A stretch of DNA of 25,778 nt from Nitrospiraceae bacterium. Lineage in GTDB: Bacteria > Nitrospirota > Nitrospiria > Nitrospirales > Nitrospiraceae. Below are positions 1-3,580 of the stretch, one piece after another. The translations under genes were made by a program, and so were the position numbers. The stretch is taken from assembly GCA_031418735.1 (NCBI GenBank), contig JANOJM010000279.1, positions 1 to 25,778 of the forward strand. Direction: 5' to 3'. The notes under the pieces are model-generated. The model saw only the letters and a program-made list of their open reading frames with translations, made no database searches and was not told the DNA's origin. Position 1 is the first letter of the stretch; each line of letters starts with the position of its first letter.

Positions 1-415
1 TTGTGCGGGCTCCTCTCTCCACTGCAAGGCCGCCCTCGTTTGATTGCACGAGCGGGATGGGGTTCAGGGTGATGTAATACATATTGGGAGAGTACTCAAT
101 CATGGCATCGGAAGCATAGTCTGTTGTTGTACTGACAGGAAAGAAGAGGAAATTGGCCCAAAAATATCCGTTCGTTTTGGTTTGAAGCATGAGAGATTGA
201 TCCTCATAGCCATTCTTTTTAGCCATGAGCATCGTAGTCTTCGAACGTTTCACGGCCATAGTTAATGGGGTCGTGCCAAGCTCCATACCGTTAACATAAA
301 TCCTGGCACCGTTTGGTGACGAGTTGAAAGTTACGGGTTGACTAGAGCCATCGATAATGGTCGCGCAACCCGAAGCAACCATAGCGAGCACTAGGATGGA
401 CAATCGAAACAGCAT
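1..415 (-). CDS. PEGA-domain lipoprotein (3' end runs off the left edge; absent from the ORF track)
   Basis: Manual translation from ATG at 415 is open for 138 codons to the edge: MLFRLSILVLAMVASGC (lipobox) ATIIDGSSQPVTFNSSPNGARIYVNGMELGTTPLTMAVKRSKTTMLMAKKNGYEDQ (PEGA-like S-x-P-x-GA-x-I-Y-V-NG...G-x-TP...KxGY). Confidence 0.8.
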   Translation of the reverse strand, partial: MLFRLSILVLAMVASGCATIIDGSSQPVTFNSSPNGARIYVNGMELGTTPLTMAVKRSKTTMLMAKKNGYEDQSLMLQTKTNGYFWANFLFFPVSTTTDYASDAMIEYSPNMYYITLNPIPLVQSNEGGLAVERGART

Positions 416-538
416 TTCTACCTTTCGCCTATGACCTAAGAGAAGGATGAAAGCCAGCCACCCCGTGAACTTGATCATGATGAGCCCCCTTATGAAATAG
501 GAACCAACAGTAGATGAATAAGGACGTAATGCACTCCC

Positions 539-577
539 TACACTCAGAAAGTGTATCTGACAGTTCTATTTTGTCAA
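539..577 (-). promoter_or_regulatory. Leftward sigma70-like promoter overlapping a perfect palindrome (candidate XRE operator)
   Basis: TACACT-cagaa-AGTGTA at 539-555. On the minus strand, TTGACA (577-572)-N16-TACACT (555-550). Lies between the divergent PEGA and XRE genes. Confidence 0.45.
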
Positions 578-649
578 TTTATTACGCCTACTGGTGGGTT
601 AATCTCACGTGGCTGTCGCCGCATACTCCCGCTCAAGAGGGGTGGCAGC

Positions 650-976
650 ATGGATATCAAACGAGCGGTGGGGAAGCGTATCAAGATCGTGCGGCAACGG
701 AGCGGACTGACTCAGGATCAACTCGCCGAACAGGTGGGGTTGAGTCCGAAATACATTAGCGGCATTGAGCGAGGGGTTGAAAATCCCACAATGGATATTC
801 TTATCCGCCTGGCGAAGATGCTTGGAGTTGAGCCGTATGATCTCTTCCTGTTTGGAGAATCAGAGGAGAGTGAGAAGGCGTTGCGAAAAGGGATCGAGAA
901 GATGGTACGGGAAGCGGATCGGGAGAAGCTTCAGTTGTATTTCGATGTCATGAGGAACATTCTCCAACTCACCTGA
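650..976 (+). CDS. XRE-family HTH transcriptional regulator (108 aa)
   Basis: MDIKRAVGKRIKIVRQRSGLTQDQLAEQVGLSPKYISGIERGVENPT is a classic HTH_3 pattern. ATG 650 with GAGGGG upstream is preferred over GTG 551. Confidence 0.9.
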   Translation: MDIKRAVGKRIKIVRQRSGLTQDQLAEQVGLSPKYISGIERGVENPTMDILIRLAKMLGVEPYDLFLFGESEESEKALRKGIEKMVREADREKLQLYFDVMRNILQLT

Positions 977-1079
977 GGCCACAGTTGAGGACAATTCCCT
1001 ACCTTCAGATACCCCTGCTGATTCCGCCTCAGTTACGCTTCCAAACTCCACCAGCTAGGCTGAATAGCTGATGAAACAG

Positions 1080-1243
1080 TCGGCGGGCCTTCGCTGTGAT
1101 AATTTGTGATAGAGGGGGTAAAAATCACAGACCCTATCGACCCCATAGAATCTATAGACAAATCACAAGCGCCTGAATTTATGAAAGAACGGGGAAACCG
1201 TTGACCGATCAAACCCTTGTAAAAATGGCCGTGATCCGGCTCT
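1080..1243 (+). repeat. att-arm direct repeat, copy 1 (ends in partial core GATCCGGCTCT)
   Basis: Colinear with 3267-3430 (offset 2187), 152/164 identical by manual alignment. It diverges right after CTCT (CTCTAGG versus CTCTTAA). Confidence 0.9.
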
Positions 1244-1245
1244 AG

Positions 1246-1520
1246 GAAATTGTGGTGGTCATGGGCGCAACCAACAAAATTCTCGCGCAGCAAGTTGATG
1301 AACTGACTGAGGGACTAACCGACGTGCGAGAATGTGTTCAGGAGGTCAAGGAGGCTGAGGATATGGCCGAACTGAGCGATACGACTGCTGAGATTGTCGA
1401 AAACATTGATAAATCATCGGGCTTGAAGACAATGACGAAGATGACGGGCAAGGGTCCGCTGAAGGATTTGAGGAAGCTCAGAGGAAGAGTACCACGAAGA
1501 AAGTGCGGCGGCCAATCTAG
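1246..1520 (+). pseudogene. 5'-truncated, frameshifted remnant of a helical protein with an acidic tail
   Basis: The frame is open directly from the arm junction (EIVVVMGATNKILAQQVDELTEGL...ENIDK). Adding one A at 1411-1413 continues it as IIGLEDNDEDDGQGSAEGFEEAQRKSTTKKVRRPI* (TAG 1518-1520). Confidence 0.55.
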
Positions 1521-1583
1521 GGTCGTCGCTCCTGGAGTCTTTATCACGAAAGTGTGCCAAGCCTAGGGGAACACTGCAAGATT

Positions 1584-2510
1584 CTACAAGACTTTGGTTT
1601 TGACTACAGTTTCTACTCCTTTGCCTCGCACTGTATCAGTAAACATTCCTACTCCAGTCTCTGTCATGAAATTAGGCAAGAGCACCACAATCAAGTTTCG
1701 CCCGTATCGCGTTTGGTAGTCCTCTAATTGGCCATGTGCACGGTGTATGTCACCCTGGCTATTGGGCATCTTGAACTCGATTCCAACTCCCCCCTGCTGA
1801 GGATGACCAATATGAAAATCGATCTTCAACGTGTTGCCATGAGCGATAGCGTACTGTTCATGTACCTTGTCCTTCCCAAATACCTCGGCCATCTCAGTGT
1901 GAAAGTCTTCATAATAGTCTTTCTCATACTCTCTATTTTTGAGGATTGGATACCACAGCACAAATGGAAGAACGGCTTCCTTGGTAAATGCCGCACCTCC
2001 ATTTACAACGCGGGGTAGCCAGCCCTCCTGAAATCCCACTTCTCGATAGATTTGCCTGAAGAGTACATCTTTAGAACCCTCGCACTTCAAGCCTAAACTT
2101 TCAGCTATAAGGAATAGTCCATCTCCGGAAGACAACTGGCGGAGGTAGTTTATTGTTTGACCAGGAAAGGTCTCTGCGGGCATTGAAAGATATTTCGTGT
2201 GTTGCCGAATCTTAGCTATTTTCTCTTCCGCTGTACCGCTGGGATCTTGGCCTAGATCTCGTAACCATTCTGAGAGTTCTTTCGAGGTTGAAACGTTAAG
2301 GTAGCAATCGAGGAGCTTCTGCCTAAATTCTGAATTTGCAGTAGGCTTTAATACGGAAAGGGGAGGCATGGACCGCACATCCTCCTGAGACGAGTCTTCA
2401 TGACCGTCTTGGACTGCTGTCAAACTTTGTTGAGTTGAAGTGGCTGCACCACAGGATTGGCAGAATCGAGCCGACTCAGGAAGTTTGTGGCCACAGGAGA
2501 TACAGAACAT
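1584..2510 (-). CDS. Zn-ribbon + two SAP-like motifs + C-terminal PD-(D/E)xK nuclease-like domain
   Basis: N-terminal CISC..CQSC. SAP-like segments ELSEWLRDLGQDPSGTAEEKIAKI and LFLIAESLGLKCEGSKDVLFRQI. Nuclease-like core YEKDY...KIDFHIG...GIEFK...GQLEDY. RBS AGGAG upstream. Confidence 0.75.
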   Translation of the reverse strand: MFCISCGHKLPESARFCQSCGAATSTQQSLTAVQDGHEDSSQEDVRSMPPLSVLKPTANSEFRQKLLDCYLNVSTSKELSEWLRDLGQDPSGTAEEKIAKIRQHTKYLSMPAETFPGQTINYLRQLSSGDGLFLIAESLGLKCEGSKDVLFRQIYREVGFQEGWLPRVVNGGAAFTKEAVLPFVLWYPILKNREYEKDYYEDFHTEMAEVFGKDKVHEQYAIAHGNTLKIDFHIGHPQQGGVGIEFKMPNSQGDIHRAHGQLEDYQTRYGRNLIVVLLPNFMTETGVGMFTDTVRGKGVETVVKTKVL

Positions 2511-2752
2511 ACTTTCTCCTCCCTTTTCTCCACGGACTTTTCAGGGCAAGAATTTGTACGGAAAGATTAGCAGCTCTTGATTGATTGTCCAGTTTTTCAG
2601 AGAATTGATAGGGCAAGCCTTTGGCCGAACCAAACAAGAGTGTAAGGCAGGAATGACAATCAGGTTGATGGTCGGGCAAGAAGATCAGCCGAAGATATTG
2701 GCATGTGCATTCCCTGCTATCTCTCAAACGCGCGGGCATTAGTCGTTTTTTG

Positions 2753-2793
2753 TGTTACCATTCATCGATATGAATATCCTTATGGGATTCATA
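2753..2793 (+). promoter_or_regulatory. Extended -10 element followed by a palindrome (candidate operator)
   Basis: TG-n-TACCAT at 2753-2761 and TATGAAT-N11-ATTCATA at 2769-2793, in the divergent intergenic region. Confidence 0.3.
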
Positions 2794-2825
2794 GCAGTTC
2801 CCTTATTCTTGACAAGGAGATTTTC

Positions 2826-3257
2826 ATGAACAAGAAACTGGCGCGACGACTCATTGGCCGGGATCTGCGCCTCTCTCCCGTACCATTAAGTTTAACCTGG
2901 TCATCCTACCCCATTATCATCCCTGAGTATCTAAATGTCTGGCGCATGGAGGAGGTAAAGGCAAACGCCTATAGTTTGACGAACCCGCAGGGCTACCGCT
3001 TGGACCTACCCGCTGAGTTGGCCCTCAGCTATACTGGGCCTGACGTCCTCGAACTGCGTGCCCAGATAATAGTGCAGGGTCGCAAGCTCACTCTCTATCC
3101 TCTAAGGGTGTACCGATGGGATATGCCTTTCCCCTTCACTGCCGTCACACAGCGCACGGCAACACAGCGAAATACCGGACCGGCCTCCGCTTCGGCATCG
3201 CCCGTCCTCGTAAGCTTAGCGCTTGGATTGATGCTCGGTCTGGTCGTGAGCTCCTGA
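2826..3257 (+). CDS. Hypothetical protein with a C-terminal transmembrane anchor (143 aa)
   Basis: AAGGAG RBS before ATG 2826 (MNKKLARRLIGRDLRLSP...). Beta-rich body, Thr/Ala/Ser linker, terminal hydrophobic helix VLVSLALGLMLGLVVSS. Confidence 0.75.
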   Translation: MNKKLARRLIGRDLRLSPVPLSLTWSSYPIIIPEYLNVWRMEEVKANAYSLTNPQGYRLDLPAELALSYTGPDVLELRAQIIVQGRKLTLYPLRVYRWDMPFPFTAVTQRTATQRNTGPASASASPVLVSLALGLMLGLVVSS

Positions 3258-3266
3258 TATTGAATA

Positions 3267-3430
3267 TCGGCGGGCCTTCGCTGTGATAATTTGTGATAGA
3301 GGGGCTAGAAATCACAGACTCTATAGACTCCATAGAATCTATAGACAGGTCACAAGCGCCTGAATTCATGAAAGAACGGGGAAACCGTTGACCGATCAAA
3401 CCCTTGTAAGAATACCCTTGATCCGGCTCT
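3267..3430 (+). repeat. att-arm direct repeat, copy 2 (P arm of attR)
   Basis: TGTGATA x2 (3282, 3292), inverted ATCACA/TCACA, 9-mer array 3312-3347, IHF-like ATCAA-N4-TTG at 3395-3406. Abuts the tRNA fragment. Confidence 0.9.
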
Positions 3431-3471
3431 TAATCAGCGGGCCGTAGGTTCGACCCCTACACGGCCCACCA
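3427..3471 (+). tRNA. 3' half of tRNA-Lys(CTT), non-functional attR fragment
   Basis: Anticodon loop CT-CTT-AA, 3' anticodon stem TCAGC, T-arm GTAGG-TTCGACC-CCTAC, acceptor strand ACGGCCC-A-CCA. There is no D-arm or 5' acceptor strand upstream. Confidence 0.9.
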
Positions 3472-3580
3472 AACCTCGCTTCGTTCGTGCCGTTCGCCTA
3501 GCTATCAGGGCAAACGGATACACCCCTCCTGTAGCTGTCGATTGTTATCATTCGTGAATAGTCCAGGCTAGAAGATCCAT

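Follow-up and report, generated by a model that had tools for sequence, protein, structure and literature searches.

The stretch of DNA considered here (the window, 25,778 nucleotides) is an entire contig, C279, from G000, the metagenome-assembled genome (MAG) of a Nitrospiraceae bacterium, apparently of freshwater sediment. The MAG comprises 2.24 Mb and is 84% complete. The window carries a gene for a protein of 308 amino acids, P0001, in which a zinc ribbon, a tandem SAP module and a C-terminal domain of PD-(D/E)xK fold follow one another. On balance we favour the view that P0001, whose gene is cargo of a small integrative island at tRNA-Lys(CTT), is a stand-alone DNA endonuclease dependent on metal ions, and that it most likely serves a single-gene conflict function, either defence against phage or plasmid DNA or conflict between elements.

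The order zinc ribbon, SAP, SAP, PD-(D/E)xK had been proposed in a sequence-only reading of the window, which regarded the protein as a candidate anti-phage or restriction effector. Pfam matches, profile comparisons, an AlphaFold2 (AF2) model and residue conservation uphold this order. The likeness of the SAP pair to DEK, the frequent XRE neighbour and the core-deleted chromosomal relatives, all set out below, went unnoticed in that reading. The model of the complete protein has a predicted local distance difference test (pLDDT) value of 86.9. Between the gene and its homologue at locus L029, which comes from groundwater and is 94% identical, there are 7, 8 and 30 substitutions at codon positions 1, 2 and 3, respectively, and the reading frame is thus under purifying selection. 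A homodimer prediction, using two copies with the alignment, gave a score of 0.00 and speaks neither for nor against dimerisation.

The C-terminal domain, residues 172-308, is modelled with a pLDDT of 92.4 as helix, three strands, helix, strand, helix, strand, the core elements being helix 196-211, strands 216-221, 229-236 and 240-247, helix 252-272 and strand 273-277. The alpha-beta-beta-beta-alpha-beta core of the model and the Foldseek likeness to solved members bear out the restriction-endonuclease-like fold that had been expected. The E...D...ExK...QxxxY core previously picked out by eye is confirmed and consists of E196 at the start of helix 1, D231 (in KIDF) on strand 2, E245-x-K247 (in IEFK) on strand 3, and Q261 and Y265 on the next helix. 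None of these six catalytic-type residues varies among 17 homologues, the most distant of which share 48% identity, and the acidic and lysine residues D231, E245 and K247 are kept in distant SAP-fused relatives as well. The core fold, the strand-2 acid with the strand-3 ExK and the likeness to solved members place the domain in the PD-(D/E)xK superfamily. We infer that P0001 is an active nuclease, and regard this role as well supported.

The best solved matches that Foldseek gives for the domain are NucS (PDB code 2vld, E 1.2e-4), EndoMS (5gke), Card1, SfsA and PspGI; against Swiss-Prot models the matches are to NucS and SfsA throughout. NucS/EndoMS, the archaeal and actinobacterial endonuclease of mismatched and branched DNA (E 1.2e-4 to 3.6e-4), resembles P0001 in its RecB-like PD-(D/E)xK core, with D, ExK and then the Q...Y helix, and in being a two-part protein with the DNA-binding part at the N-terminus. 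However, the identity is only 14-19%, P0001 has no Pfam match to NucS_C (PF01939) or NucS_N, and the N-terminal part is entirely different, a beta-barrel in NucS as opposed to the zinc ribbon and SAP pair here. Could P0001 nonetheless be a host DNA-repair endonuclease of the NucS/EndoMS type, directed at mismatches or branched DNA? The structural matches, together with one look-alike cluster in an Atlas feature search with NucS_C in 22% of its members, would be in keeping with such a role. NucS is, though, a vertically inherited repair gene, whereas the gene described here is accessory island cargo; its intact form was found in only one of the 201 genomes of its taxonomic family, G000 itself, and on mobile islands, which is unlike the distribution of a repair gene. 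We consider a role in host repair very unlikely.

No Pfam, NCBIfam, PHROG or PADLOC model covers the C-terminal domain, the best PHROG match being to a family annotated as nuclease at E 0.041. An hmmscan of P0001 against Pfam at E<=1 returned zinc-ribbon families only, and a profile of the domain compared with PDB sequences found nothing under E 0.29. With the RecB/Cas4-like nucleases (PDDEXK_1) the domain shares the QxxxY motif, Q261 and Y265 being invariant and GQxxxY kept in distant relatives, but there is no Pfam match of the PF12705 type, and residues 172-308 are free of cysteine and so lack the four-cysteine cluster of Cas4. Neither is there a Pfam match to Mrr_cat, SRA, EVE, YTH or similar domains that would indicate Mrr-like type IV restriction; a cluster named Mrr in the AlphaFold database (AFDB) appears only at E 1.3e-3, with template modelling (TM) scores of 0.28-0.35. 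The suggestion that cleavage might depend on DNA modification found nothing in its favour. P0001 lacks any domain known to read modified bases, SAP not being such a reader.

In comparison with Card1/Can2/Cdn1 and the type II enzymes BamHI, OkrAI and BglII, P0001 displays neither a CARF or SAVED sensor nor sequence similarity, and the visible island offers no cyclic-oligoadenylate context and no cognate methyltransferase. Outside the family the nearest predicted structures are DUF8371 (PF28130)/PDDEXK_9 proteins in the ESM Atlas (TM 0.66-0.74 by query); this is a structural likeness only, and these proteins are fused to AAA ATPases or DUF8370, not to SAP. The order zinc finger, SAP, C-terminal PD-(D/E)xK-superfamily nuclease is also that of FAN1, a structure-selective nuclease composed of a UBZ zinc finger, SAP, TPR and VRR-NUC (PMC4103454). 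P0001 has no match to VRR_NUC (PF08774) or TPR, however, and FAN1 is outside the top structural matches. FAN1 is an architectural analogue only, with no homology shown.

In the AF2 model residues 58-166 form six helices, which include two SAP-type helix-loop-helix units (helices 76-85/94-104 and 131-138/147-161), and the two SAP-like segments recognised earlier are thereby confirmed. P0001 itself has no match to Pfam SAP (PF02037) at E<=1; 12 of the 37 aligned family members do, the best at E 7e-8. It is at the level of the family that the SAP domain is identified, by the hidden Markov model matches of these members, by profile matches and by the helices in the model. A profile of the SAP region, when compared with the PDB, matches the pseudo-SAP/SAP module of human DEK (2jx3, E 4.5e-5) along 87 columns, which take in the spacer as well as both units, and the whole-protein profile finds the same entry at E 2e-4. 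The family profile also matches the SAP proteins 2rno and 1kcf. Proteins with a single SAP align with the second unit of the SAP-region profile only, at E 0.04 or worse.

DEK (human residues approximately 78-188; 2jx3, 9l1x) is the only solved protein that matches both SAP motifs and the spacer collinearly. A DEK-nucleosome structure is listed by Foldseek at probability 0.97, the structural scores being weak for so small a helical module (TM 0.34 by target). In eukaryotes DEK is a protein of chromatin; it has DEK-C and a region that binds histones but no nuclease, and P0001 shares with it only the pseudo-SAP/SAP module. DEK_C has no Pfam match in P0001, which does not therefore belong to the DEK family. 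The module favours supercoiled and cruciform DNA and was described in a 2026 review as unique to DEK (PMC13088671). It is conceivable, though we would rate it as improbable, that this DEK-type unit, held to be peculiar to animals and plants, serves in bacteria to target a mobile-element nuclease to the shape of DNA (supercoiled, cruciform, or branched intermediates of replication and recombination) rather than to a sequence or modification; P0001 would then be a single-protein immune nuclease sensing DNA topology or structure. The bacterial SAP pair could also mark the prokaryotic source, or a sister, of the DNA-binding domain of DEK.

At the N-terminus the double CxxC of the sequence-only reading is present as C3-x2-C6 and C17-x2-C20, and falls in a match to Pfam Zn_Ribbon_1 (PF13240, residues 2-23, E 4.5e-7). 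In the alignment the ribbon is missing from about half of the homologues. The linker that follows is poorly conserved over residues 27-50 or so, has pLDDT values below 50 in the AF2 model and is predicted to be disordered.

A word-indexed search identified 79 homologues, all unnamed. The family is rare, since an exhaustive HMMER search of 1.84 billion cluster representatives gave only 57 at E<1e-10, and its distribution is patchy over seven or more phyla, with homologues in Nitrospirota, Gemmatimonadota, Acidobacteriota, Gamma- and Betaproteobacteria, Binatia and Myxococcota. No description of it was found in the searched literature on SAP and nuclease in anti-phage defence. The combination of SAP with such a nuclease is recurrent, because the distant relatives of the C-terminal domain P0142, P0155 and P0216, in which D, ExK and GQxxxY are kept, have between one and four SAP domains that Pfam recognises. 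In one Burkholderiales MAG the gene is present twice, as diverged copies on separate contigs (L013:1434-2234 and L014:6594-7391).

Two groups of relatives have degenerate catalytic domains. In 25 of the 200 other genomes of the taxonomic family the sole relative matches residues 1 to approximately 228. These shortened proteins, of 241-263 amino acids, retain the N-terminal ribbon and both SAP units together with helix 1 and strand 1, whilst strands 2 and 3 and helix 2 are gone. Examples from Nitrospiraceae are found at L032:1501-2292, L030:1501-2226, L033 and L034 (genomes G016, G068, G184 and G155, respectively), and in four of five loci, from three genera, the shortened gene directly follows a Usp-like gene (assigned by eye, with no family search). 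The shortened form looks like a nuclease-dead derivative fixed on Nitrospiraceae chromosomes. The second group comprises P0114, P0118 and P0120, proteins of 261 amino acids that form a full-length clade at 23-28% identity, in which D231, E245, K247 and the GQ of the Q...Y helix are replaced; this is a second, independent loss of the catalytic residues.

Such relatives raise the question of whether P0001 itself might be a non-catalytic DNA-binding or architectural protein, the nuclease-like domain being retained for DNA binding or oligomerisation only. The scaffold can persist without catalysis, given that P0114, P0118 and P0120 are without the catalytic residues and the chromosomal relatives of Nitrospiraceae without the whole core. 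In P0001 and its clade, however, all six catalytic-type residues are invariant, which would not be expected were catalysis dispensable, and we judge a purely architectural role to be highly improbable.

The features of the gene and of the visible part of the island are listed in the table.

Features of the nuclease gene and of the island end in the window
Feature	Positions	Strand	Basis or remarks
PEGA-domain lipoprotein gene, truncated by the contig end	2-478	-	Pfam PEGA E 2.5e-9; divergent from the XRE gene
XRE-family helix-turn-helix (HTH) regulator, island backbone	650-976	+	Pfam HTH_3 E 1.4e-16; PADLOC HTH_VI, control protein, capH-like
164-nt terminal arm of the island, left copy	1080-1243	+	Direct repeat
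ORF104, doubtful gene, accompanies the nuclease in the 1229-2555 module	1252-1566	+	No family match
Gene for the 308-residue zinc ribbon/pseudo-SAP-SAP/PD-(D/E)xK protein (P0001)	1584-2510	-	Open reading frame (ORF) call; stop codon included
PD-(D/E)xK-fold nuclease domain, C-terminal, residues 172-308	1587-1997	-	E196, D231, E245, K247, Q261, Y265
Tandem SAP module, residues 58-166, collinear with DEK pseudo-SAP/SAP	2013-2339	-	Profile against PDB, Foldseek, Pfam SAP
Low-complexity linker, residues 24-57	2340-2441	-	Alignment; AF2 model
Zinc ribbon, N-terminal, residues 1-23 (C3, C6, C17, C20)	2442-2510	-	Pfam PF13240 E 4.5e-7; alignment
Shine-Dalgarno-like GGGAGGAG	2516-2523	-	Sequence reading; 8 nt upstream of the nuclease ATG
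143-residue protein, hydrophobic C-terminal stretch (possible membrane anchor, by eye)	2826-3257	+	Separate module 2665-3264
164-nt terminal arm, right copy	3267-3430	+	93% identical; abuts attR
tRNA-Lys(CTT) 3' half, attR end of the island	3427-3473	+	98% match to two sequences of the congener G009, the full tRNA-Lys and the attR copy

ARAGORN detects no complete tRNA within the window. That the island is targeted to a tRNA, as first proposed, was borne out by comparison with the congener G009, through which the attR end is identified as the 3' half of tRNA-Lys(CTT). The G+C content is 0.47-0.50 up to approximately position 3500 and 0.56-0.61 thereafter. At base 1 the contig breaks off inside the island, whose left part is thus unseen; within the visible part, positions 1-3473, there is no methyltransferase, in agreement with the earlier statement that none is nearby. 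In G009 tRNA-Arg and tRNA-Lys(CTT) are followed by an integrase-like ORF and an excisionase-like gene (both assigned by eye). Several ORFs come next, then the XRE gene, whose protein is 97% identical, a single 164-nt arm and a 47-nt copy of the tRNA-Lys 3' half. The same island end is thus present there with a single arm and without the nuclease cargo (L019:7304-8112).

In the window the nuclease gene sits between two copies of the terminal arm, the only two in the whole genome. The stretch between them holds no recombinase and is a mosaic. Positions 1229-2555, with ORF104 and the nuclease, are found again in L029 between other flanks, at 95% identity, and positions 2665-3264, with the gene for the 143-residue protein, in L037, where the nuclease is missing, at 90.5%. 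The latter module is absent from metagenome run X2 and from L029. Homologues of its protein, of 142-143 amino acids and 50% identity, are found in other metagenomes without the nuclease and are followed by unrelated genes encoding 188-234 amino acids. Since the gene occurs elsewhere without the nuclease, its product was rejected as a partner. ORF104 was rejected as well, for between the window and L029 it shows 5, 3 and 6 substitutions by codon position and an indel, which is no coding signature. The arm does not qualify as a structured RNA, the folding z-scores of -0.44 and -0.68 being no better than those of shuffled sequences, and an Rfam scan of the window returned nothing. Depth was compared in four sediment metagenomes on assembler contigs, which drop rare variants. 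In run X1 cassette and backbone were equally deep (13.5 and 14.4, respectively). No contig among these assemblies joins the two arms, and so the excised or empty form was not seen.

Directly to the right of attR in G009, and so just beyond the tRNA-Lys island (L019:8507-13420), an ORF for a 1006-residue helicase-like protein (SNF2-type) is followed by one for a 621-residue DNA-methyltransferase-like protein, both assigned by translation only; this hotspot may thus also harbour a locus for restriction or defence. A divergent pair consisting of a PEGA lipoprotein gene and an XRE gene of 107-109 amino acids adjoins the nuclease in three islands from Nitrospirota, its order and orientation differing between them (window 2-976; L004:9317-10318; L029:119-1290).

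We examined 22 contexts of nuclease homologues, counting hallmarks of mobility within approximately 8 kb. At least 14 contain integrases, transposases, relaxases or primase-helicases, and the accessory, mobile and non-housekeeping setting anticipated for the gene is borne out. In L004 58-nt repeats delimit an island of 6.65 kb at tRNA-Glu that contains an integrase, HTH_17, the nuclease, an XRE gene and a PEGA lipoprotein. The nuclease gene has a tRNA and an integrase beside it in L005, L006 and L011. The last of these is an integrative mobilisable element with tRNA-Val, an integrase and a MobA relaxase; the gene immediately downstream of the homologue encodes the toxin AbiEii, probably partnered by AbiEi (L011:8889-10670). 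Elsewhere we find an IS110 transposase (L008), a primase-D5 helicase (L012), HigB/HigA and a Phage_GPA initiator (L014), an IS3 transposase (L021), integrases (L023 and L027), AlpA/HTH_17 (L026), a serine recombinase with two ParB genes (L028) and a Mu-type transposase (the contig of P0048). Type I restriction-modification systems, DNA methylases, PLD-type nucleases, Fic and T5orf172 are near several homologues, and none is a constant partner.

Might the nuclease then serve the DNA processing of the element itself, as a structure-specific enzyme that aids excision, replication or junction resolution in the manner of an XisH-type factor or a resolvase? The same island backbone lacks the nuclease gene in G009, the carrier elements are unrelated (tyrosine and serine recombinases, IS110, Mu-like), and the position of the gene relative to the recombinases varies. 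The gene behaves as exchangeable cargo, as the module common to the window and L029 illustrates. Taken together these observations make a part in the element's own processing distinctly unlikely.

The sole recurrent neighbour is a small gene of the XRE HTH family, adjacent in 8 of the 22 contexts and, in L005, L008, L022 and L028, divergent from the nuclease gene across a shared intergenic region. The products fall into two size classes, of 75-80 and 107-109 amino acids. The link between XRE gene and nuclease is not obligatory because G009 has the same XRE gene as the window without the nuclease. An alternative explanation of the neighbourhood is an addiction or toxin module, in which a DNA-damaging nuclease stabilises the island, the XRE protein represses or neutralises it, and loss of the island or the regulator releases the toxin. 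Adjacency and divergent arrangement would suit this. So would the scores of the window XRE protein, all below cut-offs, on PADLOC control-protein and capH-like models and on NCBIfam antitoxin models (HipB, Y4mF), as well as the toxin-antitoxin genes HigBA and AbiE near homologues in other loci. Most contexts, however, have no adjacent XRE gene, the XRE proteins belong to at least two unrelated size classes, and in the window the arm and ORF104 separate the XRE gene from the nuclease. XRE genes are in any case common in any mobile element. An addiction module therefore seems to us unlikely.

A conflict function remains the reading we favour, and several points weigh against it. Searches of 50,697 phage records and of 72,556 plasmids brought up no homologue, nor was one found in a scan of IMG/VR made with only two degenerate peptide patterns. 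There is no sequence-level tie to any characterised nuclease family in Pfam, NCBIfam or the comparison of the C-terminal domain profile with the PDB. No PADLOC defence model matches the nuclease protein, PADLOC-DB 2.0 giving 0 families at E<=1, which agrees with the earlier failure to recognise a named system. Several contexts (L007, L013 and, its IS3 transposase apart, L021) are without recognisable defence or mobile genes, and the XRE gene of the window is part of the island backbone, present in G009 in the absence of the nuclease. The rule by which self would be told from non-self is not obvious because there is no methyltransferase and no known reader domain. Defence or inter-element conflict is nevertheless the best reading of the distribution and, on the genomic context, a plausible one. 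It is likewise the context that suggests an anti-phage activity, the abortive infection of the sequence-only reading included.

How might such a protein work? The DEK-like pseudo-SAP/SAP module would bind DNA without sequence specificity, probably favouring distorted, supercoiled or branched DNA as that of DEK does, and would position the C-terminal PD-(D/E)xK domain on it. There E196, D231 and E245 would hold Mg2+, K247 would activate a water molecule and Q261 and Y265 would line the active site. The zinc ribbon, which is optional, and the flexible linker may add a contact to nucleic acid or protein. The nuclease would act in conflicts of the mobile island, against incoming phage or plasmid DNA or against other elements, and a neighbouring XRE-type repressor may often restrain its expression. 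Structure-directed cutting is the most interesting hypothesis because DEK favours supercoiled and cruciform DNA, and NucS and EndoMS act on distorted or branched DNA.

The practical value of these observations is moderate; islands commonly carry uncharacterised PD-(D/E)xK families. The window displays the swapping of cargo modules at the end of a tRNA island, with a filled site, the empty site of a congener and the same module between other flanks. The collinear match to DEK is the first lead found toward a bacterial counterpart of the pseudo-SAP/SAP module, and a small, soluble bacterial version could aid study of how a DEK-type module reads the shape of DNA. Should P0001 prove active and protective against phages or plasmids, the family would add to bacterial defence a one-gene effector with an unusual targeting module.

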